Below, in pieces: positions 662 through 63,935 of a stretch of DNA of 64,000 bases. The DNA lies in the NCBI GenBank assembly GCA_964444755.1, contig CAYUIF010000001.1, positions 238,402 to 302,401 of the forward strand, written 5' to 3'. Both the position numbers and the translations under genes were made by a program. How positions within the stretch are numbered: position 1 is the first letter of the stretch; every line of letters starts with the position of its first letter. This stretch comes from an uncultured Alphaproteobacteria bacterium. GTDB lineage: Bacteria; Electryoneota; RPQS01. The notes under the pieces are model-generated. The model ran no database searches. It was not told the origin of the DNA and was given only the letters and a program-made list of their open reading frames with translations.

Positions 662-1876
662 TTAGGCGGGGGCGGGGGTCTTGGCGGACAGTTTGGCTTG
701 AATGGCTTTGTAGCGCGTGTCCACCTCGGCCGCTTCGTCGAATTTTCCGGTATCGGTATAGAGATGGCCGAGTTCTTTTAAACACTCGGCAACATCGGGA
801 TGATCCGCGCCGCCGCTTTTTTCGAAAATCGCCGCCGCTTCCTTGTAGAGCGGTTCGGCTTCGGAATATTTCCCCGGCACGTTATAGATCGCCGCCAGTT
901 TCTGCATCGAACGCGCTACATCGGGATGTTCATTGCCCAGTCGTTCGCCGTCCAAGGCAATCGCCAGTCGGTAGAGTTCCGCGGCTTCGTCGTCTTTCGA
1001 AAGAAACCGGCACAAACAGGCTAACTTCTTGATGGATGCCGACGTTTCGGGTTTGTTTTTCCCCAGCGCCGTTTCCCGAATTTGTCTCGCCCGCCGCACC
1101 AGCGGCTCGGCTTGCGGGAACGCCTTGCGCGAGATTTCGAGATCGGCCAGCCACATTAAATCATCGGCCACGTGCGGATGATCGGCACCTAACGCCTTTT
1201 CGTGGATTTCTAATGCCTGCTTGCCGATGCGTTCTGCGTCCGTGAATTTACCCCGTGCTGCATGCAGATTCGCGTAGGAAATCAGCGCTTCCGCCATTTC
1301 GGGATGGTCTTTGCCCAGCGCTTTCTCCCGAATCGCCAACGCTCGCGAAAAGAACTGCTCGGCTTCGTTGTAGCGTTTTTGTTCGTGCTGAAGTTCCGCC
1401 AGTTTCACCAGCAATTCAGCGACGTCGGCATGCCACGAACCCAACGCCCGTTCCCGCATGCTCAGTGCCTTGGTTAAAACCAGTTCGGCTTGTCCGTACC
1501 GGTCAATCCCCCGATAGAATTCCACCAGCTTCAGCATCGAGTCCGCTACAAACGGGTGGGTGGCGCCCAAGGCGCGCTCCAGGATCATCAGCGCGCGCTT
1601 GAAATGCTTTTCGGCTTCGGTATAATCTTCCCGCGACCGATAAACTTCACCCAAATTATTCAGACTGGCGGCAATGCGCGGATCGTTTGCCGGAAAGTCG
1701 TGTTCAGCATAGGCCAGCGCCATTGAGAACAGACGATTAGCTTCCTTGAAGTCGCCTTCGTGAAACTTCTGTTGACCGGCTTCAGTGGCTTCCTGCCAGC
1801 GGGATTCGTCGCTCAAATGGCACCTCCTGTCATCATTTTCCGGATACGGAACAAATGTGGGCAAACCCTGTTCCAT
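662..1876 (-). CDS. Tetratricopeptide-repeat protein (TPR_10/TPR_12-like repeats)
   Basis: 404 aa with about nine repeats of ~42 aa matching A-x2-Y-x2-A-L-x-I-x-E-K-A-L-G-x-D-H-P-x-V-A (kinesin-light-chain-type TPR). Confidence 0.85.
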   Translation of the reverse strand: MEQGLPTFVPYPENDDRRCHLSDESRWQEATEAGQQKFHEGDFKEANRLFSMALAYAEHDFPANDPRIAASLNNLGEVYRSREDYTEAEKHFKRALMILERALGATHPFVADSMLKLVEFYRGIDRYGQAELVLTKALSMRERALGSWHADVAELLVKLAELQHEQKRYNEAEQFFSRALAIREKALGKDHPEMAEALISYANLHAARGKFTDAERIGKQALEIHEKALGADHPHVADDLMWLADLEISRKAFPQAEPLVRRARQIRETALGKNKPETSASIKKLACLCRFLSKDDEAAELYRLAIALDGERLGNEHPDVARSMQKLAAIYNVPGKYSEAEPLYKEAAAIFEKSGGADHPDVAECLKELGHLYTDTGKFDEAAEVDTRYKAIQAKLSAKTPAPA

Positions 1877-1938
1877 TAAATCCGGCTAATGATTACAGAA
1901 AGTTACGCTACGAACCCTCCATTTTTGCCGCGACGCTT

Positions 1939-2505
1939 TTACCTTCCGTATGTCCCCATAACTTGGGCTTCATCAAGGATGTGCCCCTTCATCGCATTCT
2001 CCAGTCCGGCCTTGTTTGCACTGGTCGGGAGTTCAAGGATGGTGTCGAGGGCATACAGTTTGAAGAAATAGCGGTGAGGTTTGCCGGGAGGTGGGCAGGG
2101 ACCACCGTATCCCGCTTTCGGCCAACTGTTCAATCCCTGATACATTCCACCCGGCAGCACGCTGTCGGCGGGCACGCCTTCCGGCAGTGTGGGGGCGCTG
2201 GGCGGGAGTCCCCATAGCACCCAATGAGTCCAGGTGCCCATCGGCGCGTCGGGATCGTCGCAAATCAACGCTAAACTTTTCGTTTGTTCCGGAATTCCCG
2301 TCCATGATAGCGGCGGGGAAAGATCCTGACCGTCGCATGTGTACTTCTTCGGGATTGTCGCTCCGTTCTCGAATGCGTTACTCTTAATCACCAAAGCCAT
2401 GCCGGTCGCCCCTTTCTCCTCCACGACTGAGGAGGGTTTCTCGGCCTTCTTGCAGCCTGCAAGTAAGACCAGAGCCAGCGCTGTCGTCAGTAAGAATCGG
2501 TGCAT
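1939..2505 (-). CDS. YbhB/YbcL (PEBP/Raf-kinase-inhibitor-like) family lipoprotein
   Basis: Lipoprotein signal MHRFLLTTALALVLLAGC. PEBP core motifs are present: YTCDGQDLSPPLSW, ICDDPDAP, GTWTHWVLWG, PPPG..HRYFFKLYALD. The start codon is ambiguous (2505, 2520 or 2541). Confidence 0.85.
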   Translation of the reverse strand: MHRFLLTTALALVLLAGCKKAEKPSSVVEEKGATGMALVIKSNAFENGATIPKKYTCDGQDLSPPLSWTGIPEQTKSLALICDDPDAPMGTWTHWVLWGLPPSAPTLPEGVPADSVLPGGMYQGLNSWPKAGYGGPCPPPGKPHRYFFKLYALDTILELPTSANKAGLENAMKGHILDEAQVMGTYGR

Positions 2506-12224: not shown

Positions 12225-12660
12225 TTCACTTTCCGCTTGCGTGGTTAACACTCCAATATATGAAATTGAATGAAAGTCGCACGGTATTACCGTACTTAAA
12301 ACGAGAAATCGTAAAGGAGGCATGATATTGTACTAAATAGTCCATTAATGGGTCATGACTGTGCAGTTTCTAACACACTTCCAGACTTCTTCACTATTCA
12401 TATGTTAATCTGACAATTCCGAGATTATTTTTGGGGAATGCCATTCTTCTCAAATTACAAATATTTTAAACTTTTCATATTGAAGATATTGCTTCACCAT
12501 ATAAAGTCCTTATCTTTTTATTAGGTGTAAAGGAACAGGTTGGATTGATATTGTTCTAAATTTCACAAATAGAGTGCTGGTGTTCGTATTCTCAGGCATG
12601 CGTCCTCTCTGCATTGCGTATGCGAATACCGCGTATGTTCCTGACCAGGAGGAGAGATCA

Positions 12661-15600
12661 ATGAAACAATTCATGAGAGGGTTTTGTGGGGCGCTCTTGA
12701 CGATAATCATCGTCGGAGCGTCTTCGGTTTTTGCACAGTGTAACGCACATTTGCTTGCGGCACTCGATGAAAACAATCCCCTGTACGCCGGTCAACGGTT
12801 CGATGTTTCGGTCTGGACCGGCAGTCCGTACTGCCCGGCCAGTGGTCAGATCACGATTCGAACCGAACCGCCCGGTTCGGCGCTCATTGCGGGTAATCCG
12901 TTCTGGGTGGACAGTTTCTTCGATGTGTTTACTGAAGTCGAAACCGTGAAACCGCCGATCACACCGATCGTGCCGCCGGGCACCCCGTTTCAGATCATCA
13001 CCGAAGTGACCTTCGACGATCCGGTGTATCCGGCCTTGTGGTATGAAGAGATGGTGCAGGTTACTCCAATGAACCGTTTGGAGATCATTCATCCGCTGCC
13101 GTGCACCAGTAACGTACCCCCGGATTTGTTCTTGGGGTCGGGCAGTTGCTTCACGGTTTGTCATGGAGTGTACACGGTAGCATTGATCGGCGGTCCGATC
13201 AATTGTGAGCCGATTATTCACGTGACTCCCGGTTGCACAATGCCGCCGTGCGGACCGCAGCCGTGTATGCCGGGTTCGCCGGATTCCTACCGCTATGAGG
13301 TCTATCAATATGGCGGTCAATGGTACCTTGAGTTCGAGTATTCCAATCCCCTTGTGGAACCGGTTTGCTACTGCGTCAACTATGTGGGCAATTTGCCGCA
13401 TGCCGGCGAAACCTATGTATTAGGCGGATGGGAGAACGCGCGCCAGGATATGAATGTCTCGGTGTGGACCAACAACTTGATGGATCCCATCAGCGGGACA
13501 ATCGAGATCTTTTCCTATCCCGCCGGAGCCCAGTTTGAAGGTGGCGGTGGGGGCGGTGGTGGATATGTCGAATCCTTCTTCGATGTCTTCATGGAGCCGT
13601 GGACGGCCGATCCGCCGGTCGGTCCCGGTATCTTTACTCCCGGTCAGCAGTTCCAACTCATTGGCTACATCCACTATGATCCCCCCGGACTGAGCTATCC
13701 GCCGCAATGGGTAGTAGAGGATGTGGTTGTCACGCCCAATGGCGGATTACAACTGGTCAATCCGGGTTGTACCGGTCCGGTGATTATCCCGCCCCGGATT
13801 ACTCCGGGAGTCCCGGCTTGTCTGAATGTCTGTCACGATATCTATTACATTCCGCTGGATTGCGAGGCATCGTCTACGCCCGAAGTGCAAATCTTCTCCG
13901 GCTGTGATCTGACCACGCCCTGTGCCAGTACGTTCCCCTGCACGCCGGGCGCCATGACTGATTTCCGCTATGATGTTTATCGGGTGGGCGGAACGTGGAT
14001 TTTGGAATTCGAATACTCCAACGAGCAGATTCAACCGGTTTGCTATTGTGTGGATGTTTCGTGCCCGTCCACGCCTCGTCCCGTGGCCTATGGTTTAGGC
14101 GCGCTCAGCGAATGGCATCAAACCTTTGATGTTTCCGTGTGGGGGAGCAGTCCGCGAGTTCCCCTGAATGGAACAATCCACTATCGCTCCGACCCGCCGG
14201 GAGCCGCTTTAGACTGGCCGGTGGATAGTTTCTTCGATGTGTTCCTGGAACCGTTTACCTCGAAGGTTCCGGTCATGCCGGGCATCTTCATGCCCGGTGA
14301 GACGTTCCATCTGATTGCCGAGATTGATTTCTTTGGTCCCGGCAGCGATCCCTTCGATGGAATTATTTACGATGAGTGCGTGGTGGTTACTCCCACCGGA
14401 CAATTGGCGCTATGGGATCCCATTACCCCCTGCGGCGGTGACTACACGCCCGGCTCGATGAGTCCCGGACAATCCGAATGTTTCCGGGTTTGTCACCGGG
14501 TTTACGAAATTGTTTTGAATTATCTGCCCGGCGGCGGTCGTCCGGTGATCAGTGTGACGCCCGGCTGCCAAGGTCCGCCGTTCGATAATTGCGTGATGGA
14601 AGCTTGCGTTCCCGGCGGTCCTAACGACTTTGTCTATGATGTTTATCACAACGGAGTGGATTGGATTCTGCGTTTCGAGTATTCCAATCCTTATGTCGAA
14701 CCGGTCTGTTACTGCGTGACCTATGAAGGCAATGTGCCATTCGATTGTGAAACCCGCGAACTGGCCGCTCTCGATGAGATAGATTCGTTCTTCGATGTGT
14801 CACTCCGCACCTTCAGCCCCAGCGGTCAAACCTGTCCCGCTTCGGGAATGATTACTCTCTATTCTTATCCGGAGGGTGCGTATATCGGTCCGTACATCGA
14901 TTCCTTCTTCGATGTGTTCACCGAATGGTACACCGTAAAGGCGCCGGTCGGTCCGGGTACCTTTGGACCGGGTGAAGCCTTCCAGCTCATCGCCTATATT
15001 GATTACACCGAACCCGCCTATCCCGATCAATGGCTGACCGAGGAAGTGATGGTGAATTCTGCGGGTACGGGTCTCGTGATCAATGACACCGGTGGTGAAT
15101 GCACGGGCGATATCGTTCCGCCGGCCATGAACTTGGGGATGTCGGCCTGCTTCAAGGTCTGTCATCGCATCTACCATATTCCCATCATTGATGCGACTGA
15201 TCCCGCCAATCCGCCAACGGTCATCGTTACTCCCGGCTGTTTCGGTGAACCGCAGGATCATTGCCTGCCCGACCCGGAATGCACGCCCGGTCATCCCGAC
15301 TACTATCGTTACGATCTCATTTGGATGGGAGACCATTGGGAACTGGAGTTCGAATACTCCAACGAGAATGTCGAACCCGTCTGTTACTGTGTGACGGTCG
15401 AAGGAACCTCCCAACCCTGTGAGACGCACGCCTTGGTCGCGCTGGACAGCGACAATCAGTTGTTGAAGGTGAGCTTGATGTCGCGTGATCCGGGCGGGAC
15501 ACTGCCCTGCGAAGTTAGTGGAACGGTAAGGCTGCAATCGGTTCCATTCGGACTGTATTTCCAGACTCCAACTTGGCACTTCTTCGGAGTCGGTGAAGAA

Positions 15601-17004
15601 TGGGTTGCAGAAGCCACGCCGGTGGCGCGGGATGCGGGTGTTCCGGATAGCTTCTTCGATGTCTTCGTGGAAATTGATTTTGATGATCCCGCTCAACCGG
15701 ATATGATCGAAACCGAAAGTGTGATGGTTGATCCGGTTTCCGGCGGCTTGGTCATTAACGACGTGGGCGGCCAATGCCCGCCCGGCGCGATCTATGTTCC
15801 GGATACGTTGCACTACGGACAACCCGAATGCTTCAAGGTCTGTCACGATATCTATTACGTGTCGCTGGATATCCCCGGACCGCAAGTCATCCCGGTGGTT
15901 ATGGTGACGCCCGGCTGTGATCCTTCCGCCACCAATTGCAGCGATCCGGCCTGCACCCCCGGCGGCCCCTTCGACTATCGCTACGATGTGTTCAAAGTCG
16001 GCGGCTCGTGGATTCTCGAATTTGAATATTCCAACGAGGATATCGAACCGGTTTGTTACTGCGTTGAAGTCTCCGCGATCAATCCGGTTCCCTTCGAAGC
16101 GTATATGCTGGGAACGTTGAACGAAGTGGATCAGACCTTCGATATCACCTTATGGACCTCCCCCGGTGCGCCCCTCGCCGACGGCAGCTTGATCGTATAT
16201 GCCGATCCGATTTCCGCCAGTGTTATTCCGTTTACCGGAGTGGGAGCGGATTACGTGACGTGGCATGTGCCGGTCAGCACCGGTATGCTGCTGCCCGGAC
16301 AGGATTTTGAGCTGATCGCCCGCGTGCAATTCAACGATCCGGTCTTCGGCAGATGGGAGTATCACGAGACCGTGATGATTGATCCCACCGGCATCGTTAT
16401 CCCCTGGGATCCCATCACACCGTGCATCGGTGATCATGTTCCGGCGGTGATGGACGGCGGCACGTCCCGCTGCTTCATCGTCTGCCACAAGGTCTACGAT
16501 GTTCTGCTCAATATCTCGCCGCTGGTGACGCAGCCGTTGATTTCGGTCACCCCCGGCTGTTTCGGCGCGCCGTTGGATAGCTGCCCCGTAGTGGATTGCC
16601 GGCCCGGCGGTCCGCTGGATTACTGCTACCGCTTCTACTTCGATGGAATCTATTGGCATCTCCTCTTCGAGTATTCCAATATGTACCGTCAGCCCGTGTG
16701 CTACTGCGTCACGATTCTTTCACCGCCGCCGCCGTGCGATCCGGTGCCTGACCTGGTGATTCTCTGGCCGAATGTGGATACCGGGGCTCCGCTGCAGATT
16801 ACCTTCACCTGCCCGCAGGATGCGGAATACCTGATCTACAGCACCACCGATCCGAACAATCACGGCGATCCGCCCGGTCCGCTGTGGTCGCTGGATCACA
16901 CCGTCCTCGGTTTGGCCGGTCAGCAGATTACCTGGGTTCCGGTTCATGCCGATAATGCCTACTACCGCAATTATGTCGTGAAGGCGCGCTGCGGTCCGCA
17001 TTAA
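12661..17004 (+). CDS. Giant secreted cysteine-rich protein built from six tandem ~225-aa repeats (novel repeat family with a CX3CH motif)
   Basis: GGAGGAG RBS, then ATG at 12661. Signal peptide MKQFMRGFCGALLTIIIVGASSVFAQC. Six units each contain DSFFDVF, C-x3-CH (CFTVCH, CLNVCH, CFRVCH, CFKVCH twice, CFIVCH), VTPGC, C.PG.P.D.YRYDVY..G..W.LEFEYSN and EPVCYCV. There is a poly-Gly linker (GGGGGGGG) and no T9SS C-terminal domain. Confidence 0.85.
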   Translation: MKQFMRGFCGALLTIIIVGASSVFAQCNAHLLAALDENNPLYAGQRFDVSVWTGSPYCPASGQITIRTEPPGSALIAGNPFWVDSFFDVFTEVETVKPPITPIVPPGTPFQIITEVTFDDPVYPALWYEEMVQVTPMNRLEIIHPLPCTSNVPPDLFLGSGSCFTVCHGVYTVALIGGPINCEPIIHVTPGCTMPPCGPQPCMPGSPDSYRYEVYQYGGQWYLEFEYSNPLVEPVCYCVNYVGNLPHAGETYVLGGWENARQDMNVSVWTNNLMDPISGTIEIFSYPAGAQFEGGGGGGGGYVESFFDVFMEPWTADPPVGPGIFTPGQQFQLIGYIHYDPPGLSYPPQWVVEDVVVTPNGGLQLVNPGCTGPVIIPPRITPGVPACLNVCHDIYYIPLDCEASSTPEVQIFSGCDLTTPCASTFPCTPGAMTDFRYDVYRVGGTWILEFEYSNEQIQPVCYCVDVSCPSTPRPVAYGLGALSEWHQTFDVSVWGSSPRVPLNGTIHYRSDPPGAALDWPVDSFFDVFLEPFTSKVPVMPGIFMPGETFHLIAEIDFFGPGSDPFDGIIYDECVVVTPTGQLALWDPITPCGGDYTPGSMSPGQSECFRVCHRVYEIVLNYLPGGGRPVISVTPGCQGPPFDNCVMEACVPGGPNDFVYDVYHNGVDWILRFEYSNPYVEPVCYCVTYEGNVPFDCETRELAALDEIDSFFDVSLRTFSPSGQTCPASGMITLYSYPEGAYIGPYIDSFFDVFTEWYTVKAPVGPGTFGPGEAFQLIAYIDYTEPAYPDQWLTEEVMVNSAGTGLVINDTGGECTGDIVPPAMNLGMSACFKVCHRIYHIPIIDATDPANPPTVIVTPGCFGEPQDHCLPDPECTPGHPDYYRYDLIWMGDHWELEFEYSNENVEPVCYCVTVEGTSQPCETHALVALDSDNQLLKVSLMSRDPGGTLPCEVSGTVRLQSVPFGLYFQTPTWHFFGVGEEWVAEATPVARDAGVPDSFFDVFVEIDFDDPAQPDMIETESVMVDPVSGGLVINDVGGQCPPGAIYVPDTLHYGQPECFKVCHDIYYVSLDIPGPQVIPVVMVTPGCDPSATNCSDPACTPGGPFDYRYDVFKVGGSWILEFEYSNEDIEPVCYCVEVSAINPVPFEAYMLGTLNEVDQTFDITLWTSPGAPLADGSLIVYADPISASVIPFTGVGADYVTWHVPVSTGMLLPGQDFELIARVQFNDPVFGRWEYHETVMIDPTGIVIPWDPITPCIGDHVPAVMDGGTSRCFIVCHKVYDVLLNISPLVTQPLISVTPGCFGAPLDSCPVVDCRPGGPLDYCYRFYFDGIYWHLLFEYSNMYRQPVCYCVTILSPPPPCDPVPDLVILWPNVDTGAPLQITFTCPQDAEYLIYSTTDPNNHGDPPGPLWSLDHTVLGLAGQQITWVPVHADNAYYRNYVVKARCGPH
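12780..16740 (+). repeat. Six intragenic tandem repeat units (~660-680 nt each) inside the giant gene
   Basis: EFEYSN codons recur at about 13331, 14011, 14673, 15342, 16021 and 16670. Protein units share roughly 35-50% identity. Confidence 0.8.
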
Positions 17005-17128: not shown

Positions 17129-18151
17129 TTATCGAATCGCAATCGCGCCGGTTTCCACCGGATAAGTCGGTGTGAGATTCGTCCACACATTCGCGCCCAG
17201 AATTGCCGGATCATCGGTGATGGCGTTCACGCCCATCCGCATCGAATAAGCGTCATAACCCAGCGCGTTGAGATAAGCGTCCATCTGCATGGAGGTTTGA
17301 CCCGTGAAACAGTACACAACCACCGGACGATCGGTGGGAATGTACTTCAGATTCTCGGTAAGACCCAGCGATCCGGGCTGAAAGCGATAGGAACCGGGAA
17401 TATGTCCCGCATTGTAGTTGGCTTCCGGCCAGTAGCACAAGAGGAACCAGTCGTTGCTGGCGTCGCCGTCGTTCAGGTTGGTATAAACGTCCGCCGCGCT
17501 CTTCATCTTCCAGTTTACCGGGGAAGCCGTGAGCTGCTGGGAAATGCGGCTGACGAACATATCAATCGCGCTGCCGCTGGCGCTCGGATTCGGGAACGCG
17601 TATTCGGTGGTCAGCGGATGATTGGCTGTTTCCAACGTCTGTCCGCCGCGGGTCAGGGTGTACCAGCCGCCGCCCGCGCCGGTCTGGGCTGTATCGCTGG
17701 TCCATGAACAGAAGCCCCACTTGAGATTGTAGGCGTTGAGACCGACCAGGTTCAAGTAACTGGTGGCAAAACTGGCGGTTTGGCCCGTATAGCAGTAAAC
17801 CACGATCTTCTTATCCGTCGGCAGATCCGCGCGATAGTTCACTAAGTCTGCGGCATCCCAGTGATGCGCGCCGGGAATGTGACCGCGCACCGTATCATCC
17901 GCCAGCGAGCGAATGCTGATGATATAGGGTTGAGTTGCATCACCGTCGTTCATTTCCGTCCATAACACATCCGCGGTGATATTCTTGGTTGAACCGAGAA
18001 TACTGTCGCCCCAGGCTGCCATCGTTTGAAACGCAGTAGTAGCTGGCGGATTGTTGTTGTCGCTGCTGTCGTCATCATCGGAACAACCGATGAATACCGT
18101 TAAACTGGCCATGAGAATCATGGGGACCAGCCATTTCGCAAATGCCTTCAT
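17129..18151 (-). CDS. Lipoprotein with two rhodanese-like domains
   Basis: Lipobox LTVFIGC. Two rhodanese active-site-type loops, VVYCYTGQTASF and VVYCFTGQTSMQ, each preceded by HIPGA/HIPGS. Confidence 0.85.
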   Translation of the reverse strand: MKAFAKWLVPMILMASLTVFIGCSDDDDSSDNNNPPATTAFQTMAAWGDSILGSTKNITADVLWTEMNDGDATQPYIISIRSLADDTVRGHIPGAHHWDAADLVNYRADLPTDKKIVVYCYTGQTASFATSYLNLVGLNAYNLKWGFCSWTSDTAQTGAGGGWYTLTRGGQTLETANHPLTTEYAFPNPSASGSAIDMFVSRISQQLTASPVNWKMKSAADVYTNLNDGDASNDWFLLCYWPEANYNAGHIPGSYRFQPGSLGLTENLKYIPTDRPVVVYCFTGQTSMQMDAYLNALGYDAYSMRMGVNAITDDPAILGANVWTNLTPTYPVETGAIAIR

Positions 18152-18208: not shown

Positions 18209-19309
18209 TTACCAGGGCGGCGGTCCGTCGGGAACGATCACTCCCGCATTGGCTTGCCGCTCGTTCGCTGATGATAATTGATCCAAATCCACCTGCCGGA
18301 GGAAGAAACCTTCCGGAGTGTTGGGAGTCAGGTGGCAGGCTGCGTTGCAGCTCTGTCCGCCGCTGGTATCGGTCTGCGCCGTCCAGCGTACGATATTGTG
18401 CGGAGTTGCGTATTTGTACGTCGGCAACGATGCATAATTCGGACTGGCGATCCCCCACGGTGTGTACGTATTCTCGGATACCGGGATATGCCGCAGCACG
18501 ACATATTCGCCGGGGCGCTGATCGGGAATCGGATTCCGTCCGATCTTGAAATCTATCCACGATGGTTGCTGAATGCCGTCGCCCGCATGACACTCCGCGC
18601 AATTCTTGTAGGCTTGCGAGTGGCACACCTGACACTGTAAATCGTCGCCGTGAACGGTGTGATACGAATTGGCCGCCAGCGGACTGTGGCAGTCGCGGCA
18701 GCTCACCGGATCGTCCACGTCATAGCGGGTTGTGTACTCCGTTCCGTCGCCATGAATCTTCTGGCCGCTGTGACAGGCTTTGCAATGCATCGCATTGGGA
18801 ATGTAGTGGACGTCGGCGCGGTATCCGGCGTTTTCGCCGGTATATTCAGGACCGATGCGGCTGCCGTGACAAGCGATGCACTGGTTGGTCATATCCGGAG
18901 TGCGGCGGATGTTATGGCCTTGAATAAACCCTCCGCCCACCGACTTCGGACGGCTGATGTGGCATGATCCGCAGCTCGCATGGCACTTGTTGCATTCGGC
19001 GTTGTACGCCTCATAGGCGTGCGGATCGGAAGTCAAAGCCCGCCCCGTGCGTGCTTCGAAGAGCGTATGATACCCCTTCATGGTCGTATGCAGACTGTGC
19101 GATACGTTATTCGCGATCTCCTGATGGCACATCCCGCACTGGTTGACGGAGATCTCCGACGGATCGGCAATCATTCCGTCGTGCGCTTCTTCCTTCGTGA
19201 GTTGTCCGGCCCGTCCGCCGTGACAGATGCGGCATTCCAGTGCGTGGGCGCTGTTGCGGAACGCTTCATAACCGCTGCCTGTCAGAATTACTTTTTGCCA
19301 TCCCTCCAA
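18209..19309 (-). CDS. Multiheme c-type cytochrome (9 CxxCH + 1 CxxxCH), body segment without its own signal peptide
   Basis: CRICH, CGMCH, CNKCH, CGSCH, CIACH, CKACH, CRDCH, CQVCH, CAECH, CNAACH. Begins at a TTG, 18 nt downstream of and in frame with the 19328-19549 ORF. Confidence 0.8.
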   Translation of the reverse strand: MEGWQKVILTGSGYEAFRNSAHALECRICHGGRAGQLTKEEAHDGMIADPSEISVNQCGMCHQEIANNVSHSLHTTMKGYHTLFEARTGRALTSDPHAYEAYNAECNKCHASCGSCHISRPKSVGGGFIQGHNIRRTPDMTNQCIACHGSRIGPEYTGENAGYRADVHYIPNAMHCKACHSGQKIHGDGTEYTTRYDVDDPVSCRDCHSPLAANSYHTVHGDDLQCQVCHSQAYKNCAECHAGDGIQQPSWIDFKIGRNPIPDQRPGEYVVLRHIPVSENTYTPWGIASPNYASLPTYKYATPHNIVRWTAQTDTSGGQSCNAACHLTPNTPEGFFLRQVDLDQLSSANERQANAGVIVPDGPPPW

Positions 19310-19327
19310 CGGAGAGACTGAGCCGCC

Positions 19328-19549
19328 TCAGCCTTCGCCGCTGTCATCGCCGGAAGAGCCGGTATCCGGCAGCGCAACGGCTTTCAGCATGGTTTCGTTG
19401 GTATGGCAGCCGATGCAATCCGCGGTGTTGGCTTCTCCCGCGGGAGCGGCCGGATTATCCTCATCGCTGCATCCCCAAAAGGCGAAGGCGGCGAAGAGTA
19501 ATCCGATAGCAACCAGTACCCAAAACGTCATGGGTTTCATATCGTGCAA
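19328..19549 (-). CDS. Lipoprotein signal peptide + first heme-binding site (CIGCH); probable N-terminal part of the multiheme cytochrome, cut off by an in-frame TGA
   Basis: MKPMTFWVLVAIGLLFAAFAFWGC lipobox, then CIGCH. The TGA at 19328-19330 is in the same frame as the 366-aa cytochrome ORF. Confidence 0.55.
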   Translation of the reverse strand: MHDMKPMTFWVLVAIGLLFAAFAFWGCSDEDNPAAPAGEANTADCIGCHTNETMLKAVALPDTGSSGDDSGEG

Positions 19550-19727: not shown

Positions 19728-20168
19728 TTACTGTGCTCTCTGGTTCAGTATCTCGATGATCTGCGGAACCTGCGGATCTTCGGGAACCAGCTTCTGATAT
19801 TCCCGGAACAGTTCAATTGCGGTGCGGGCATCACAGTAGGATTCATAAATTCCCAGCACCAACACCCGGTTGGCCGGATCGTCGAAGCTGCGGTGTCCGT
19901 TGCCGATAAACGAAGCCAAATCCGGGCACGGACAATCCTCCGCCTTTGGATCGGTGTCCAGAATGATTGCGGGATTTTCGGTTAGTAGTTCGAAATAGAG
20001 GCGGTAGCCGTCCCGTAAGCGACCGGTTTCGATGTAGGCAATAATCAGTTTCTTGCGAGCCTTCAGATGTTCGGGATGAAGGCGAAGGTATTCTTCCAGG
20101 ATCGGCACCGCCCGCTCATAGCTGTGGGTCAGAAAAAAGTAATTGCCGATCATCTCCGAGATCGCCAT
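19728..20168 (-). CDS. Small TPR-like protein
   Basis: 146 aa from MAISEMIGNYFFLTHSYERAVPILEEYLRLHPEHLKARKKLIIAYIETGRLRDGYRLYFELL. Helical repeat character. Confidence 0.55.
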   Translation of the reverse strand: MAISEMIGNYFFLTHSYERAVPILEEYLRLHPEHLKARKKLIIAYIETGRLRDGYRLYFELLTENPAIILDTDPKAEDCPCPDLASFIGNGHRSFDDPANRVLVLGIYESYCDARTAIELFREYQKLVPEDPQVPQIIEILNQRAQ

Positions 20169-20248
20169 CGGACCTCCATGTCCAGTTGTTAAAAATGTAA
20201 CAAGCAACATTCAGACCATCTTGTAAAAATAATAACTTAACAAAAAAC

Positions 20249-20374: not shown

Positions 20375-21688
20375 CTACTGTTCCATCTTATATTGCTTCA
20401 TCAACCGCCACAAAGTCGTTCGGCTGATTCCTAAAAGTTCGCAGGCTTTTTGTCGGTTCCAGTTAGTATCCCGCAATGCGCGAAGAACTCTCGCCTTTGC
20501 GGTTGATCCGCCCTGGTCATTGATCGAAATCACACTCTGGTTCTCCCTGACTTCAGGAGGCAAATGACCCAGTTGCACAGATCCGCCACGGGCTCGAATC
20601 ATGCTATACTCCAGAGCGTTCTCTAATTGCCGCACATTTCCCGGCCATTGGTAGCGTGCCAAGGCATCGTAACACTCATCGGTGAGCTGCGCTTTCGGGT
20701 AATTATTTTTGTTCTTCAGGCGGTTGAATAGACTCTCAACCAGTAACAATACATCATTTCCTCGTTTGCGCAGCGGCGGCAATTCCATGGGGACGGTTGA
20801 CAGACGGTAAAATAGATCCTCGCGAAACTTTCCCTCGGCGATGAGCTTTCGTAAATCCCGGTTGGTCGCGGCAATCACCCGGACATCCACTTTGATCGTC
20901 CGGCTCCCGCCCACCGGTTCGAACTCCCGCGATTGCAGCACTCGCAGCAGTTTAAGCTGAACGGCCGGAGACGCTTCCCCGATCTCATCTAAAAATATCG
21001 TTCCCCCGTCCGCCGTCTCGAACCGCCCCGCCCGGTCGGTGTAGGCTCCTGTGAATGCTCCCTTTACATGACCGAATAACTCGCTTTCCAGAAGATTTTC
21101 GGCAAAAACGGAGCAATTGACCTTCACATACGCCTTGTTCCGGCGGGGACTGCGGGCGACGATGGCATCCGCCGCCAATTCCTTCCCGGTTCCGCTTTCG
21201 CCCGTGATTAATACCGTGGTCTCCAACCCCGCCACTTGCTCGATCAGCTCGAAAACCTCCAGCACACTGCGATCTCGACCGATCATTCCTTCAAAATGAT
21301 CCTCGGCCGCCAGTTGACTACCCCGTTGCGCGCTATCCACTGGGCGAAACACCATGATTCCGCCGGTGGTCTCGCCGGTTTCATCTTTCAGTTCCGAAGA
21401 ATTGACCAGCACCTGAAGGGTTGCTCCATCCTTGCGGGTAATAGCCATCCGGGTATCCCGGAGTGGTTGGCCAAGTTCCAGGGCGCGAAATAACGGGCAC
21501 TCATCCTCACACCGGTCCGTCTTAAATACGCTCCGGCAGAATAACCCCGTTTCTGCCGACGTTGAGAAGCCCGTCAGGCGTTCGGCGGACGGGTTCATAT
21601 AGGTCAGCTTCCAGTTGCGGTCCACGATATAGACGCCTTCGTGAAGCGCATCCAATAGCGCATGAAGTGCGAAATCAGATAGGTCCAT
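20375..21688 (-). CDS. Sigma-54-dependent transcriptional activator with N-terminal PAS domain (NtrC family)
   Basis: PAS (YIVDRNWKLTYMNPSAERLTG). AAA+ Walker A GESGTGKE. GAFTGA sigma-54 contact motif. ESELFGH. C-terminal Fis-type HTH (ACELLGISRTTLWRLMK). Confidence 0.92.
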   Translation of the reverse strand: MDLSDFALHALLDALHEGVYIVDRNWKLTYMNPSAERLTGFSTSAETGLFCRSVFKTDRCEDECPLFRALELGQPLRDTRMAITRKDGATLQVLVNSSELKDETGETTGGIMVFRPVDSAQRGSQLAAEDHFEGMIGRDRSVLEVFELIEQVAGLETTVLITGESGTGKELAADAIVARSPRRNKAYVKVNCSVFAENLLESELFGHVKGAFTGAYTDRAGRFETADGGTIFLDEIGEASPAVQLKLLRVLQSREFEPVGGSRTIKVDVRVIAATNRDLRKLIAEGKFREDLFYRLSTVPMELPPLRKRGNDVLLLVESLFNRLKNKNNYPKAQLTDECYDALARYQWPGNVRQLENALEYSMIRARGGSVQLGHLPPEVRENQSVISINDQGGSTAKARVLRALRDTNWNRQKACELLGISRTTLWRLMKQYKMEQ

Positions 21689-23982: not shown

Positions 23983-24957
23983 CTATTTAAGAAGTACTAC
24001 CGGTTGTGATAGAGTTCTTTTCGGACTCGTAAGTCGCACATAATACATGCCCGACGAAAGTTGACTTCCCTCAATCTGAACTCTATGAAAACCAGAACTC
24101 AACGGACCCTTTGTCAAAGTCTGGACACGCCTGCCCAAAAGATCATAAAGTGCCACATCCATCACCATCGGCGAGGACAACGTGAACGAAATCGTGGCCG
24201 TGCTGTTGAAGGGATTCGGGTAGACCTCGCTTAATGCGAACTCCTCTCCGATGGCCGCGCGAGGCTCGTCGGTCCACGAGGTCGCTTCGAGAGTGATGTC
24301 TATTCCCTCGGGGAAATTCGATTCCTGTACGACGATGGCGGTGGGAGTGCCGCCGCCGTAGACGCCGCGCGGTTCGCCGGGATCCCATGCGAAGTTGCCG
24401 TCGAGATCCATGAAGGCATAAGCATAGAAGGTGGCGAAGCTGTCCACCAGCGCGACGTAATCGCCGTTGCCGGTATTGTTGAAGAGCAGGCTGCCGCCGT
24501 GGGGGAGGTCGAGAAAATCGGGAGTGTAATAGGCGAACAGCAGGGTGGTTCCGGTGCCCGCGCCGCTATAGCTGATGGTTCCCGAAAAGCCGCCTTGATT
24601 GGGCGGATGGAGTTCGATGTTCACGCCGGTGGTATCGGAAATCAACTCGAAGACCTGCGGGATATCGCCGCCGTAGAAACCGCGCGGTTCGTCCAGATCG
24701 GGAGTGATGCTGGTATTCAGATCCTGATAGGCAAACAGCACATAGCCGCCTTCATCCAAACCCGAAAAACCGTAGGTGTTGATGAACGGAATGGCGATGG
24801 TGATGTAGAAGGTATCGAGGGTAGTGGGCACGGCAAACACATAGCGCAGCGGCAAGCCCGTTCCGCCGGTGATAGTGCCGGAGATGGAATAGGCTTGGGC
24901 AGTACCCGCCCATAGAATGAGGCACAACAAACAGATCGCGAATAATCGGCTCTTCAT
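23983..24957 (-). CDS. T9SS (Por) C-terminal sorting-domain secreted protein
   Basis: Signal MKSRLFAICLLCLILWAGTAQA. C-terminal VYPNPFNSTATISFTLSSPMVMDVALYDLLGRRVQTL...GMYYVRL...VVLLK matches the TIGR04183-type domain. Confidence 0.8.
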   Translation of the reverse strand: MKSRLFAICLLCLILWAGTAQAYSISGTITGGTGLPLRYVFAVPTTLDTFYITIAIPFINTYGFSGLDEGGYVLFAYQDLNTSITPDLDEPRGFYGGDIPQVFELISDTTGVNIELHPPNQGGFSGTISYSGAGTGTTLLFAYYTPDFLDLPHGGSLLFNNTGNGDYVALVDSFATFYAYAFMDLDGNFAWDPGEPRGVYGGGTPTAIVVQESNFPEGIDITLEATSWTDEPRAAIGEEFALSEVYPNPFNSTATISFTLSSPMVMDVALYDLLGRRVQTLTKGPLSSGFHRVQIEGSQLSSGMYYVRLTSPKRTLSQPVVLLK

Positions 24958-25139
24958 AAGAACTCCCGTCGGCATAAGTGGCGATGACCCAGTGTACGAA
25001 GATTTCCGCGCATTTTCAAATTCTACTTACGTTACACAATTCATGCCGAAATCCGGCGGTCCGCTCAATAAATTTAAGGCGATAGGTGGAGTGGCATGGA
25101 AATATTTTTTTGCCGAACGAACTACCTAAGAACAGAGAA

Positions 25140-44081: not shown

Positions 44082-44225
44082 TCCGCCGTGGTCGGTCTCC
44101 CGACCGGCCATGGCCCATCGTCATTATTCTTCAGGAGGTTCTCATGAAATCGGCAACTGTGACCTGTCTCCTGTTCTTATCCGTATCCCTTTCTTTTTCG
44201 CAACCCCCCGATACCCTGTGGATGC
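43840..44225 (+). repeat. Cassette junction: conserved C-terminal-domain coding block + intergenic RBS + conserved signal-peptide coding block
   Basis: The ~240-nt C-terminal-domain coding segment recurs at 45327-45568, 46752-46992 and 48050-48291 (about 80-90% nt identity). The RBS/signal-peptide block (ttcaggaggttct.atgaaatcggcaactgtgacctgtctcctg...) recurs at 45583-45680. Confidence 0.75.
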
Positions 44226-45568
44226 GCACCTATTACGCTGATATGGGAGGCAATGCGAACGCACTGTGTCTCACCCAAGACGGCGGTTATGCTGTAGCCG
44301 GTATCTGCTGCTTTGCTGGCTACCACAACTTCTTCTTTGGTGGTTTTGTTAATAAACTGGATCATTCCGGCCAGACGGAATGGACATGGAGTATTTTAGG
44401 CAGTGCGCTCGCCAACAGCTGCTGGGCGAATGACGTGATTTCGACGGCAGACGGCGGTGTGGTGGCCTGCGGCAGTGGCAACTACTGGGGAGGCGGTCTC
44501 GGCCAAGGTCCGGAAATGTACCTCTGGGTAGTGCGATTAAATGCCCAGGGAGATACCCTATGGTTTTACGAGCAAACGGAAAGTAATACTGATTGGTATG
44601 GCGGCGGTCGGGCGATTGCGACCGCGCCCGACGGATTCCTCATTGCCGGATCATATTTTACGTCGCTGACAAAGCTGGACACCGCTGGGAACCTGCTCTG
44701 GCAGCGCAATTGGGGCATGTCGCTAAAGGATATCACACCGACTCCCGATGGGAATTTCGTGTGTGTCGGATCGTATGATACCAGCGCATCCCGCTGCCTG
44801 ATCGTTAAAGTCACTCCCGACGGCGATACGCTGTGGACGCGCGATTGTAATACGGGATGGGATGAACAGGTGCGTGCGGTGACCACCACCTTTGGCGGCG
44901 GACTGGCCATCTGCGGAACGGGTAACTATCCACCTATCGGCGTTGATACCTTCTTGGGGATCTTGGATAGCAGCGGCAATTATCTGGTACGACGGGCTTA
45001 TGAACACGAGCATTCTTATGCCATAGATCTCTGCCAACTCGCCGATTCGGGATTCATCCTGGTGGGCGGAATTACACCGACCTACCCTAATCCGAGGCAG
45101 ACCTTTGTCGTTCGCACGGCACCGAATGCCGATGCGATGTGGACCAAGCTGTGGGATGAGACTTTTGAAAACTTTGCCAACTCCGTCGTACAGGATACCG
45201 ACAGCGGCTTTGTCTTGGTCGGCAAATGGGGAAATGATTACTGGTATATCTCCAAACTGGAATACGATCTGGTGGATATAGATGAGTCGCCGACCGCTCG
45301 CATTCCCGAGTCGTTTTCCTTGATGGCTTTTCCCAATCCCTTCAATCCGTCTACTACAATTTCCTTTTCGCTTCCGAAAAGCGCTCAAACCCGCTTAACG
45401 GTCTATGATCTCTTAGGCCGCGAAGTGGCGATACTGAGCGACGGAATGCTGGAAGTGGGCGAACACCAAATGCAATTCGATGGTTCAGCCTTGCCTTCCG
45501 GTCTCTACTTCGCTCGCTTGCAATCCGGAGATTTCGTTACGACTCAGAAGCTCTTATTGGTGAAATAA
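44144..45568 (+). CDS. T9SS-sorted beta-propeller-repeat protein (474 aa), paralog
   Basis: Signal MKSATVTCLLFLSVSLSFSQPPDTLW is identical to that of the next gene. Repeated DGGY / GDTLW blades. T9SS C-terminal domain. Confidence 0.8.
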   Translation: MKSATVTCLLFLSVSLSFSQPPDTLWMRTYYADMGGNANALCLTQDGGYAVAGICCFAGYHNFFFGGFVNKLDHSGQTEWTWSILGSALANSCWANDVISTADGGVVACGSGNYWGGGLGQGPEMYLWVVRLNAQGDTLWFYEQTESNTDWYGGGRAIATAPDGFLIAGSYFTSLTKLDTAGNLLWQRNWGMSLKDITPTPDGNFVCVGSYDTSASRCLIVKVTPDGDTLWTRDCNTGWDEQVRAVTTTFGGGLAICGTGNYPPIGVDTFLGILDSSGNYLVRRAYEHEHSYAIDLCQLADSGFILVGGITPTYPNPRQTFVVRTAPNADAMWTKLWDETFENFANSVVQDTDSGFVLVGKWGNDYWYISKLEYDLVDIDESPTARIPESFSLMAFPNPFNPSTTISFSLPKSAQTRLTVYDLLGREVAILSDGMLEVGEHQMQFDGSALPSGLYFARLQSGDFVTTQKLLLVK

Positions 45569-45597
45569 TCCGCCTTTATCGCTCTTCAGGAGGTTCT

Positions 45598-46992
45598 ATG
45601 AAATCGGCAACTGTGACCTGTCTCCTGTTGTTATCCGTATCCCTTTCTTTCTCCCAACCCCCCGATACTCTCTGGACACGGCACTTTTCTCCACTTTGGC
45701 CAGACGCCGGTGGTCTGCGCAGTGTTCATGCGCTGCCCGATGGCGGTTTTATGGCGGTAGGACATTGCTGCTATAATCTGTACCACTTCTTCTATAATGC
45801 TGCATATGTCGGACGGTATGATTCAGAGGGAAATGCCGTCTGGGAGAATCATTATTGGGGAACCAGCGGCTCAACTCTCGGAATTGGAGCAATCGCCTTC
45901 GATGTTTGGCCATTGCCCGAGAGCGGGTGCATTGTGGCGGCGGGGATCGGAGCAGGTTGGCCATGGCTTCCAGCCACAGTCATGCGTGTAAATGAGGGAG
46001 GTACTATTGAATGGGCATTTTCGAGCACTACATATGGCATAACTGAAATGCGCGCGGTCAGTATGACTACTGAAAATGTAGTGGCCGCCGTTGCCAGTGA
46101 TTCAGGAACAGTCTTTCGTTTCAGTCTCGATGGTGATACATTATCGAGGACCGACCTGTATCCTGCCGACCTGTTCGCGACGCTTCCCACACCCGACGGC
46201 GGATTTGTGGTGGCGGGGAGCGATACCTTTCCCATCCGTTATGCGTTCTATCTGGCTAAGTTTGACGCCCACGGCGATACGATGTGGACGCGGCGGCATT
46301 CGGTATCCACCTTGGGCGGCGGCGCGTATGCCCTGTGCCATGCCCCGAATGGCGGATTCATGCTGGCGGGCACGGCGCTCATGCCCGATACCACGCTGCC
46401 GGAATTTGCCGCCGTGGTGATGGTGGATTCCACCGGCCAATTATTGAGCCAGCATATCTATGGAGACATTCCACCCGTAATCGCGGCGGATCGCTGCGCG
46501 GAAGGCGGCTACATCCTGCTCGCCGACCGGCTCCTGCGCATTAACGATGAGGGCGATACCTTGTGGACACGCACCCTGCCCTGCAACGATTGCTTCTACA
46601 GTGTCATCCAAACCGCCGATAGCGGCTATCTCGTGGCCGGGCAGATTACGGTTGATCTAAGACAAAAAGCGTATTTAGCGAAGTACACACGGGAAGGTTT
46701 ACCCGTCACGGATCATCCAGCTGCTCTGCCTGCTGAATTCCGACTGATAGCCTATCCGAATCCGTTTAATCCATTAACCACGATTGCATTTTCGCTTCCT
46801 AAATCCGCACTCACCCGCTTGACGGTCTATGACCTCTTAGGTCGTGAAGTGGCGGTGCTGACGGATCAAATGCTCGAAGCGGGCGAGCATCTTGTTTCGT
46901 TTGACGGCACAGCCCTGCCATCGGGACTATATTTTGCTCGACTGAGAAGCGGCGAGTTTACTGCCACGAGAAAACTTTTGCTTGTAAAATAA
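45598..46992 (+). CDS. T9SS-sorted beta-propeller-repeat protein (464 aa), paralog
   Basis: Same signal peptide. Divergent middle region. C-terminal domain ...AYPNPFNPLTTIAFSLPKSALTRLTVYDLLGREVAVL...LLLVK. Confidence 0.8.
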   Translation: MKSATVTCLLLLSVSLSFSQPPDTLWTRHFSPLWPDAGGLRSVHALPDGGFMAVGHCCYNLYHFFYNAAYVGRYDSEGNAVWENHYWGTSGSTLGIGAIAFDVWPLPESGCIVAAGIGAGWPWLPATVMRVNEGGTIEWAFSSTTYGITEMRAVSMTTENVVAAVASDSGTVFRFSLDGDTLSRTDLYPADLFATLPTPDGGFVVAGSDTFPIRYAFYLAKFDAHGDTMWTRRHSVSTLGGGAYALCHAPNGGFMLAGTALMPDTTLPEFAAVVMVDSTGQLLSQHIYGDIPPVIAADRCAEGGYILLADRLLRINDEGDTLWTRTLPCNDCFYSVIQTADSGYLVAGQITVDLRQKAYLAKYTREGLPVTDHPAALPAEFRLIAYPNPFNPLTTIAFSLPKSALTRLTVYDLLGREVAVLTDQMLEAGEHLVSFDGTALPSGLYFARLRSGEFTATRKLLLVK

Positions 46993-47043
46993 CCATAATT
47001 GAATTACATTCTATGTTGAACTACACCTTTGTCGGGAGGGACA

Positions 47044-48291
47044 ATGAGAATCATTCTGCGCGCCGCATTAATCCTGTTTTTGTCGGTCACGGCGGTTAAG
47101 GTTTATGGATCTGTAGAACTGGAGACGTTTCGAATATGGGGGATGGAGAACAGTCTTTCCGTAGGATGGAGTACCAGCTCCGAAACCGCTAATGCCTTTA
47201 TAGAATTGTGGAGAGCGGAAACAGAGTCGGGTCCTTATGTTCTAATAAGCATTGAACAAGGACATGGTACGACAACCAATACGAGTAGTTACTGGCACTA
47301 CAACTCGGGACTCTTGCCGAATCAGCGATATTTCCATTATTTGATCGCCGTTGATACCGCCGGATACCGCGAGATTGTCAGCGATACGGTATCCGAGCGA
47401 ACTGCTCCGATAAAAATTAATGGGATACCGGGCTATCCGAAATGTCCCACGGGATATCGGGTTTCGTGGACGGTTCATTATGAATATGATATTCTGGACT
47501 ACTCGCTTCGTCGTGGACCATACGGTGGATGCAATACTGATATTGCCGTCATCCCGTCACAGGGTAATACGGACTCGATTCGTACGTATTACTATACCGA
47601 TCTCGATGCGCCCTTGCGCGTGAGCACTTACTGCATCGTCGCTCGTCGTATGGACTCCACGACTTATGCACCGCTCTTCTTCTATATTCCAGAGGAACCG
47701 GTAGCTATAGCAAGCTTGGATTCCTTTGCCGTCACACCAGCATCTTCGAATGTCGAAATATTCTGGCGAACAAATTATGAAAGCTGGCTGCGCTGTTACG
47801 AAGTTCAGCGGCGACGTACGAGCGATTCCAGCTATACCGTAGTCGCGGAATTGCAGGGTGCAGGATATTATGCCTACGATCGCAGTTACACGGTGGTTGA
47901 TACAACTCTCACCGCTGGTGGCACATACAATTATCTGGTCGGCTATACGGATGCCTACGAGGTCTTTCGCGTGTTGTGCGATTCTACGGTGGAGGTAGTG
48001 CTTTCCGGTGCGGAGTATGAGCCGCTGGCACAATCGTTTGCTCTGTCCGCTTTCCCCAATCCGTTTAATCCAACGACCACAATTTCGTTTTCACTTCCAA
48101 AATCCGCCCTTACTCACTTGATAATCTACGATCTCTTAGGCCGTGAAGTGGCGATATTGACGGATGGCATGCTCGAAGCGGGGGAGCATCGCTTTTCGTT
48201 TGACGGCTCTGATCTACCGTCGGGATTGTACTTTGCTCGACTGAGAAGCGGTGAGTTGACTGCCACGCATAAACTCCTATTAGTGAAATAG
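47044..48291 (+). CDS. T9SS-sorted protein with FN3/Ig-like body (415 aa)
   Basis: GGGAGGG RBS. Signal MRIILRAALILFLSVTAVKVYG. Same-family C-terminal domain ...FPNPFNPTTTISFSLPKSALTHLIIYDLLGREVAIL...LLLVK. Confidence 0.75.
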   Translation: MRIILRAALILFLSVTAVKVYGSVELETFRIWGMENSLSVGWSTSSETANAFIELWRAETESGPYVLISIEQGHGTTTNTSSYWHYNSGLLPNQRYFHYLIAVDTAGYREIVSDTVSERTAPIKINGIPGYPKCPTGYRVSWTVHYEYDILDYSLRRGPYGGCNTDIAVIPSQGNTDSIRTYYYTDLDAPLRVSTYCIVARRMDSTTYAPLFFYIPEEPVAIASLDSFAVTPASSNVEIFWRTNYESWLRCYEVQRRRTSDSSYTVVAELQGAGYYAYDRSYTVVDTTLTAGGTYNYLVGYTDAYEVFRVLCDSTVEVVLSGAEYEPLAQSFALSAFPNPFNPTTTISFSLPKSALTHLIIYDLLGREVAILTDGMLEAGEHRFSFDGSDLPSGLYFARLRSGELTATHKLLLVK

Positions 48292-63890: not shown

Positions 63891-63935
63891 CGCAGATCCT
63901 GATCGATACATCATAAGACCTCCCGGATCCACCAT

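Follow-up and report, generated by a model that had tools for sequence, protein, structure and literature searches.

On the minus strand of the window, the whole 64-kb stretch of DNA that was analysed, a single in-frame TGA (19330..19328) separates an open reading frame of 70 codons (ORF1) from one of 366 codons (ORF2), and the two read together as a multiheme cytochrome c. The question raised by this locus is whether the codon ends a gene, marks a decayed or misassembled one, or is translated. Recoding to selenocysteine (Sec) was among the alternatives listed in a preliminary description of this DNA, and it is now the one to be favored: with the TGA shared by 62 of 80 loci, Cys in nearly all the others and a conserved hairpin downstream, the UGA is very probably a selenocysteine codon.

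The interrupted cytochrome gene

ORF1 (19549/19540..19328, minus strand) encodes a signal peptide, MKPMTFWVLVAIGLLFAAFAFWGC, followed by the heme motif CIGCH and a Gly/Asp/Ser linker that ends in GEG immediately before the TGA; its probable start is the ATG at 19540, with an alternative TTG upstream at 19549. ORF2 (19309..18209, minus strand) continues in the same frame 18 nt past the TGA, the intervening codons reading GGSVSP, and opens with a TTG from which 366 aa are encoded. Translation agrees with the preliminary description on each point of this layout, including the absence from ORF2 of any signal peptide of its own. Read through the TGA, the product would have 443 aa if translation starts at the ATG at 19540, or 446 aa if it starts at the TTG upstream, and would carry 11 heme motifs, 10 of the form CxxCH and one CxxxCH. 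The complete gene of this putative selenoprotein, a lipoprotein multiheme cytochrome c, thus spans 18209..19540 on the minus strand and ends with a TAA at 18211..18209, and its length falls within that of the full-length Cys-type homologues (430–480 aa). The signal peptide (19469..19540, minus strand) contains a lipobox, F-W-G-C (residues 21–24), as read from the sequence, and the column of Cys24 holds Cys in 81 of 82 full-length homologues; the cytochrome is accordingly predicted to be a bacterial lipoprotein. The first heme motif (residues 42–46; 19403..19417, minus strand) lies 5' of the UGA, and the UGA itself (19328..19330, minus strand) would place Sec71 in the sequence G-E-G-U-G-G. Among Pfam models, Cytochrome_C7 scores above its cut-off in this protein, and the MtrC/MtrF domain II/IV is borderline (29.9 bits versus a cut-off of 30).

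The source is a metagenome assembly, which leaves room for an assembly or sequencing error, or for strain heterogeneity, at 19328–19330, the true codon being a sense codon such as TGC or TGG. Against this, the Logan assembly of SRR32167788 and the NCBI MAG GCA_049322395.1, which represent the same organism and possibly the same sample as each other, are identical in sequence around the TGA, and 61 other genomes have TGA at the homologous codon. Conservation and these independent assemblies effectively exclude both the error and the heterogeneity that had been considered beforehand, and the chance that either accounts for the codon is negligible.

TGA is also used as a genuine stop elsewhere in the window, as the preliminary description had noted: the 22 long ORFs end in TAA (15), TAG (5) or TGA (2), and the glutamate dehydrogenase gene gdh has a TGA stop (9259–9261). 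A reassigned genetic code, with UGA read as Gly or Trp, was considered and rejected because table 11 leaves the long ORFs unbroken and gdh ends at a TGA. A scan of the window for TGA codons flanked by long open stretches yielded no credible case of another selenoprotein gene.

The TGA codon among relatives

A search with the fused protein gave 852 relatives. Of these the best 120 were inspected, nearly all of them ∼350–390 aa long and matching the query in its ORF2 portion alone; Calditrichota, Eisenbacteria, Zixibacteria, Gemmatimonadota and others are represented. The few full-length matches have a cysteine exactly opposite the TGA, in the sequence G-C-G-G. Seeding the search with such a Cys-type protein recovered more than 100 full-length proteins, 440–480 aa long, from Bacteroidota and Ignavibacteriota; Cys-type homologues are encoded by single ORFs. 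In an alignment of 120 sequences the 11 heme motifs are all conserved, and at the site in question Cys is present in 80 of the 82 full-length proteins, the two exceptions having Arg and Gly, respectively; the surrounding motif G-[U/C]-G-G is invariant among the aligned homologues.

We then turned to the DNA, scanning one genome per species, which gave at least 593 relatives, and keeping 80 loci in which the frame 5' of each ORF2-like match was translated. The homologous codon is TGA in 62 of these species-level loci, Cys (TGC/TGT) in 16, and Arg (CGA-type) and Gly in one each; without exception the stops are TGA (62/62), with TAA and TAG absent. A CxxCH motif lies in frame 5' of the site in each of the 78 Sec- or Cys-type loci, and in most loci a lipoprotein-like signal peptide lies upstream (a hydrophobic stretch plus [GAS]-C, seen by eye and uncounted). 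Downstream of the site the motif G-G-x-x-P-x-L-E-x-W is conserved, and the coding sequence remains conserved to either side of the UGA. The family so defined occurs in Calditrichota, Eisenbacteria, Krumholzibacteria, KSB1, Gemmatimonadota, Chloroflexota, Ignavibacteriota and Bacteroidota, and the recurrence of the arrangement, codon for codon, in 62 of 80 loci is far beyond chance. Two marks by which selenoprotein genes are recognized are therefore present, namely a UGA conserved among orthologues within conserved coding sequence and Cys homologues aligned to that UGA.

These data bear directly on whether the cytochrome is a pseudogene in the source organism, disabled by a recent nonsense mutation. 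A single in-frame stop in an otherwise intact gene is what such a mutation would leave, and the window offers no sign of Sec machinery (see below). A recent mutation does not explain, however, why TGA occupies the homologous codon in 62 of 80 loci from different species and phyla, flanked on either side by sequence under purifying selection, and a general decay of these loci, with frameshifts or additional stops, is not seen. A relative with 80% identity is instructive in this respect; it keeps the TGA despite many substitutions nearby and a diverged linker just upstream. The conservation of the TGA effectively excludes the pseudogene that the preliminary description had offered as an alternative, leaving it a vanishingly small probability.

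The remaining conventional reading is that of two separate genes, a 70-aa monoheme lipoprotein and, after reinitiation at the TTG that lies 18 nt beyond the stop, a 366-aa cytochrome. This is how gene callers annotate the locus everywhere, as seen both in the near-identical protein at NCBI (a 366-aa hypothetical protein) and in more than 100 truncated database entries. Yet ORF2 has no export signal although its hemes need to be attached in the periplasm, the Cys-type orthologues are single ORFs, and the stop is always TGA. Nor does ORF2 have a conserved start, since the first possible start codon varies among loci from 3 to 79 codons after the TGA, and the Leu codon at the position of the TTG is CTG in many of them. 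Taken together, the conservation of TGA and Cys, the lack of a conserved ORF2 start and the identical assemblies exclude two genes as they do a pseudogene or an assembly error, and we regard a two-gene arrangement as very improbable. The comparison with orthologs that had been proposed at the outset thus supports 19540..18209 being one gene whose product is a 443-aa lipoprotein carrying Sec71 as well as 11 heme motifs, in line with the earlier suggestion of a single gene of ∼446 aa with 11 heme sites: the Cys-type homologues are uninterrupted, and the split falls at the same codon across phyla.

The effect on annotation is considerable. In hundreds of genomes, gene callers and the NCBI pipeline leave only a 366-aa "hypothetical protein" that lacks the signal peptide, and because of this truncation an exported 11-heme enzyme and its probable selenium dependence are invisible in metabolic reconstructions of Calditrichota, Eisenbacteria, KSB1, Krumholzibacteria, Gemmatimonadota and Chloroflexota.

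The hairpin after the UGA and the Sec machinery

Immediately downstream of the UGA the mRNA can form a SECIS-type hairpin (19300..19318, minus strand), identified by folding and covariation. With positions counted from the U of the UGA, an 8-bp stem is formed by nt 13–20 and 24–31, its arms being GUCUCUCC and GGAGGGAU, around a GUU loop (nt 21–23); the hairpin starts 10 nt and its apical loop 17 nt after the UGA. Folded alone, the window hairpin has a free energy of −13.3 kcal/mol, which is only modestly below that of shuffled sequences (z −1.63).

Among relatives the hairpin occurs in two registers. In class A, which comprises 33 Sec-type sequences including the window, 89.4% of cells are paired, compared with 39–53% when the partner columns are slid, and pair 15–29 appears as GC, CG, GU, AU and UA and is unpaired in none of the 33. 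In class B (25 sequences) the helix is shifted by 3 nt to positions 16–23 and 27–34 around a GGA loop, with 95.1% of cells paired versus 20–52% when slid, and pair 20–30 appears as CG, AU and UA, position 30 being a synonymous third codon position. Each sequence was placed in one register or the other according to its number of pairs, and the nucleotides of the hairpin also encode a conserved stretch (P-P-L-E-x-W); this inflates the percentages of paired cells but not the compensatory pairs. The 80%-identical relative gives a close-range example, a U·G pair of the hairpin having become C-G. The Ignavibacteria-type Cys forms have no hairpin, with only 1–4 of 7–8 positions able to pair. In one sequence variant a different pairing, read by eye and unscored, leaves a U bulged out of the 3' arm, a feature shared with the fdhF-type SECIS of E. 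coli.

Pair-by-pair covariation counts were used in place of the minimum free energy (MFE) of the whole segment, which discriminates poorly because the GC-rich P-P-L-E coding sequence folds regardless: against synonymous-codon shuffles, the 48 nt after the UGA give a mean z of −0.76 for Sec forms and −0.50 for Cys forms, a weak difference. Rfam contained nothing relevant, either in a gathering-threshold scan of the whole window or in an E-value scan of 19150–19450.

By the general rule for a bacterial SECIS (bSECIS), 16–37 nt separate the UGA from the apical loop, and a G is found among the first two nucleotides of the loop (PMC13188914). Both registers are stem-loops of this kind, with the loop starting 17 nt (class A) or 20 nt (class B) after the UGA and reading GUU, GGU, AGUUG or GGA. 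The hairpin, conserved in two registers with compensatory changes, thus fits the bacterial SECIS model and is best described as a putative SECIS. The earlier assessment of a weak stem that made an unconvincing bacterial SECIS was too pessimistic, given an 8-bp helix at the right distance from the UGA with compensatory changes across species. As in the fdhF-type SECIS of E. coli, the stem-loop lies directly 3' of the UGA inside the coding sequence, and the apical loop starts ∼17–20 nt after it with G/U first; the differences are a shorter stem (8 bp), a 3-nt loop (GUU or GGA), the existence of two alternative registers in different lineages and recruitment of SelB that here is predicted.

The machinery for Sec insertion was sought with Pfam on the 20 largest ORFs of the window, with tblastn using E. 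coli SelA, SelB and SelD against the window and 83 loci, and with ARAGORN on all loci. Within the 64-kb window, which has no tRNA genes, selA, selB, selD and tRNA-Sec were not found. The sole match in the window and loci is a selD homologue in locus L059 (42% identity, E 3e-62), ∼1.2 kb from the orthologous cytochrome.

The UGA might also be read through without selenium, by a near-cognate tRNA (Trp, Cys or Arg) or by local reassignment, with the hairpin acting as a stimulator. The lack of Sec machinery in the window would agree with this, as would the single relatives with Arg (CGA-type) and Gly. Set against these exceptions, nearly every sequence without the TGA has Cys in its place (16 loci; 80/82 proteins), the hallmark of Sec/Cys exchange; furthermore, the geometry of the hairpin fits a bSECIS, TGA is a normal stop in the window, and selD is linked to the cytochrome in L059. 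We therefore judge selenium-free read-through improbable and retain Sec as the residue most likely to be inserted.

The rhodanese partner and proposed chemistry

On the same strand, 57 nt downstream of the cytochrome, the window encodes a 340-aa tandem-rhodanese lipoprotein (17129..18151, minus strand; Pfam PF00581 in two stretches) in which both active-site cysteines, C120 and C281, are present. A rhodanese homologue accompanies the cytochrome in 75 of the 80 loci, lying directly downstream on the same strand in 72 with a median gap of 62 nt, and the two cysteines are conserved in 68/70 (C120) and 66/70 (C281) sequences. Upstream, and in the same orientation, are a small TPR protein with a D-C-P-C-P motif (19728..20168, minus strand; Pfam TPR_14/TPR_19) and a PAS, sigma-54 activator and HTH protein (20375..21688, minus strand; Pfam Sigma54_activat E 1e-67, PAS, HTH_8). 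The former probably starts at the ATG at 20168 (the mechanical ORF start being 20210) and is called as 146 aa in an independent assembly; homologues with the CPC motif are found near the cytochrome in 16 of the 80 loci. Homologues of the latter lie upstream of the cytochrome in 25 of 80, and it is the probable regulator of the cytochrome-rhodanese module.

Three cytochrome-related selenoprotein families are listed in a 2026 review, namely ExtKL (NF040886), GSU2204 (NF041027) and the octaheme tetrathionate reductase (OTR) type (TIGR04315), some members of the last being annotated as selenoproteins in GenBank (PMC13188914). Neither the window protein nor three Cys homologues matched any of these three models at E ≤ 10, and none of the NCBIfam models scores above its cut-off. 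Membership of ExtKL/MccSep, GSU2204 or OTR (TIGR04315) was rejected on this lack of HMM matches together with the different architecture. NF041027 does give a weak match elsewhere, to a barrel protein neighboring the cytochrome in one locus (E 2e-4, 20 bits versus a cut-off of 350). Our reading of the literature, the coverage of which is incomplete so that an earlier description is possible, found no description of an 11-heme Sec family, and the cytochrome looks like an apparently undescribed family of Sec-containing multiheme reductases.

By analogy, the nearest functional counterpart is MccSep/ExtKL (GSU2937-2936), a pentaheme selenoprotein of Geobacter sulfurreducens that reduces polysulfide and selenite and whose gene lies in a cluster with that of the rhodanese ExtH (PMC13510729; PMC6148476). 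MccSep was the first Sec-dependent multiheme reductase and was characterized only in 2026. In both cases an in-frame UGA divides the gene of a c-type multiheme cytochrome, which is annotated as a pair of ORFs, and the UGA is followed directly by a SECIS-like hairpin; Sec and Cys variants occur across the family, and a rhodanese-family lipoprotein (ExtH in MccSep) and porin/cytochrome genes are encoded nearby. The chemistry of MccSep is chalcogen reduction (polysulfide, selenite), and the 11-heme family may resemble it in this as well. There is, in contrast, no detectable sequence relationship between the two. MccSep has five hemes (five conserved CxxCH) rather than 11, and its Sec325 lies in a D-G-U-P loop of a C-terminal Ig-like domain, whereas Sec71 would lie in G-U-G-G in an N-terminal extension. 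In MccSep the Sec is paired with a conserved heme-ligating Cys239, and no free Cys is conserved in the 11-heme family; MccSep forms a soluble tetramer in the periplasm, whereas the 11-heme protein is predicted to be a lipoprotein. Desulfobacterota and Nitrospirota account for most occurrences of MccSep, a distribution different from that of the eight phyla of the 11-heme family. The differences in heme number, Sec position, partner Cys and lipoprotein anchor are the reason for proposing a new family rather than a further member of MccSep. If this is correct, the family would be a second and apparently unrelated solution that combines Sec, a heme chain and a rhodanese, with Sec placed elsewhere and without a partner Cys, and the two would offer a natural comparison of selenium-heme cooperation in the reduction of S–S or Se–O bonds.

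The heme core has an OTR-like fold in an AF2 model that contains no hemes, its best structural match being OTR of Shewanella oneidensis (PDB 1sp3) and not MtrC. OTR, too, is a multiheme enzyme, and it reduces sulfur compounds, as is proposed for the 11-heme family. The two differ in heme number (8 in OTR, 11 here) and share 21% identity, and OTR is not a lipoprotein. In a profile alignment hemes 1 and 2 of OTR align to hemes 3 and 4 of the 11-heme family, so heme 1 and the Sec segment form an N-terminal extension that OTR lacks. The alignment places K56 (a non-His residue) and the free C64 of OTR before its second heme motif, and the alignment of 120 sequences contains no conserved equivalent of either in the 11-heme family. 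From the work of Mowat et al. in 2004, Lys56 is reportedly the active-site heme ligand of OTR, with Cys64 near the active site. To our knowledge, OTR has no obligate rhodanese neighbor.

A role for the Sec residue can be proposed from what the protein lacks. Sec71 would be the sole chalcogen side chain outside the heme motifs and the lipobox. Across the 120 aligned sequences there are 11 heme motifs and only nine conserved non-motif His residues, with no conserved Met and no conserved free Cys besides the Sec/Cys site, so that at least two hemes would be without a His distal ligand. We envisage that the mRNA hairpin acts as a bacterial SECIS that recruits SelB with Sec-tRNA(Sec), allowing translation to continue through the UGA and yielding, in order, a lipoprotein signal peptide, heme 1, the flexible Gly/Asp/Ser linker, Sec71 in the G-U-G-G turn and a 10-heme body. 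As the only free chalcogen side chain in a protein with more heme motifs than His residues to cap them, Sec71 would most likely be the catalytic nucleophile at a heme that has no distal His, or else the distal ligand of that heme.

Together with the rhodanese lipoprotein, which is presumably co-transcribed, the cytochrome could carry out the reductive cleavage of sulfane or selenium substrates, with polysulfide, rhodanese persulfide, tetrathionate/thiosulfate and selenite as candidates. The rhodanese would hand the sulfane or selenium substrate to Sec71. A Sec residue beside an obligate rhodanese partner points to chalcogen chemistry rather than metal-oxide reduction, and we consider the case for a rhodanese-assisted chalcogen reductase to be evenly balanced; what Sec71 does in catalysis, which substrate is used and whether the enzyme works in the periplasm or at the surface are proposed from context and analogy. 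The pair is nonetheless a candidate for the reduction of sulfur, polysulfide, tetrathionate or selenite in abundant uncultured lineages of sediment and soil. Sulfur/polysulfide or selenium respiration in FCB-group phyla and Chloroflexota is currently assigned to molybdoenzymes. A more far-reaching proposal, which we put forward as speculative and rather unlikely, is that the 11-heme lipoproteins, present in at least 593 species-level genomes, are a very widespread group of selenoenzymes whose Sec, without a partner Cys, serves as the distal axial ligand of a c-type heme or sits directly over one (a natural His/Sec-ligated heme), and that with their rhodanese they provide an alternative route for such respiration in these groups.

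Electrons would reach Sec71 through the heme chain. A DmsE/MtrA-family decaheme cytochrome that passes the TIGR03508 cut-off is encoded in 42 of the 80 loci and, being of the MtrA/DmsE type, is a possible donor in about half of them; in fewer loci a porin-like barrel may also be available for the electron route, an MtrB/PioB-like barrel being present in 12 of 80 (12–24 loci with other barrel candidates). These genes, and a lipoprotein cytochrome with a borderline MtrC/MtrF match, recall the porin-cytochrome conduits of the Mtr/Ext type (MtrCAB; ExtHIJKL), from which the window differs in having no MtrA or MtrB gene beside its cytochrome-rhodanese module and in a fold nearest to that of OTR. 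Seven loci, all from Chloroflexota, encode an NrfC/PsrB-like 4Fe-4S protein.

Variation at the probable selenocysteine site and the hairpins beyond it

Among the Cys-type genes, in which a cysteine codon occupies the site homologous to the in-frame TGA of the window cytochrome (19328-19330), three from Bacteroidota (loci L038, L041 and L062) carry a strong hairpin, CUUCC(G)-GAAAU-GGAAG, about 10-30 nt past the Cys codon, with z values of -2 to -3.2 against synonymous shuffles. A fourth Cys-type gene, in L016, retains the full class A hairpin, the SECIS-type register used by the window (8-bp stem, loop 17 nt after the UGA). The hairpins in all four genes may be relic SECIS elements left after a recent Sec-to-Cys conversion. 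Two further loci, L015 and L048, have neither Sec nor Cys at this site, where Arg (GEIRGG) or Gly (ARGGDG) is found instead; these forms may be inactive paralogues, may have an altered chemistry, or may reflect point changes of TGA to CGA or GGA.

The deltaproteobacterial MAG represented by L059 encodes a homologue of the selenophosphate synthetase gene selD (1215..2225 of that locus, minus strand; 42% identity to E. coli SelD), which lies ∼1.2 kb upstream of a cytochrome of the Sec type, with TGA at the site.

Upstream genes and a sigma-54 promoter-like element

Upstream of the cytochrome, on the minus strand, lies a gene for a small TPR protein (19728..20168) with a conserved acidic D-C-P-C-P motif, which reads DDCPCPEL in the representative homologue from L065. 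Homologues of this protein were found alongside the cytochrome-rhodanese pair in 16 loci; possible roles are chalcogen or metal binding, or a chaperone function. Some 35 nt upstream of its probable start is a -24/-12-like element, TGGtctgaatgTTGCT (20203..20218, minus strand), which departs from the sigma-54 consensus at three positions but retains the correctly spaced GG and GC. This element is adjoined by a gene for a PAS-containing sigma-54 activator (20375..21688, minus strand), the PAS domain of which bears a cysteine cluster, C-x10-C-x3-C. Together, the promoter-like element, the neighboring activator and the cysteines of its PAS domain hint that the cytochrome module is under redox- or sulfur-responsive sigma-54 control.

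Other proteins of the window and database naming

Convergent with the rhodanese gene is a plus-strand gene (12574..17004) for a secreted protein of 1476 aa composed of six repeats of ∼230 aa, each of which contains DSFFDVF, FEYSN and PVCYCV motifs as well as a single CxxCH motif of the form C-[FL]-x-V-C-H; the product looks like a giant protein with a single heme motif per repeat. Proteins with a C-terminal Por_Secre_tail domain, for type IX secretion sorting, are encoded at 23983..24975, 44144..48291 and 62751..63935, consistent with an FCB-group (Calditrichota) origin of the window.

Several database homologues that are pure cytochromes (P0005, P0029, P0139, P0162 and others) bear the JGI name "thiosulfate/3-mercaptopyruvate sulfurtransferase," probably because the annotation of the adjoining rhodanese gene spilled over or because gene calls had been fused.
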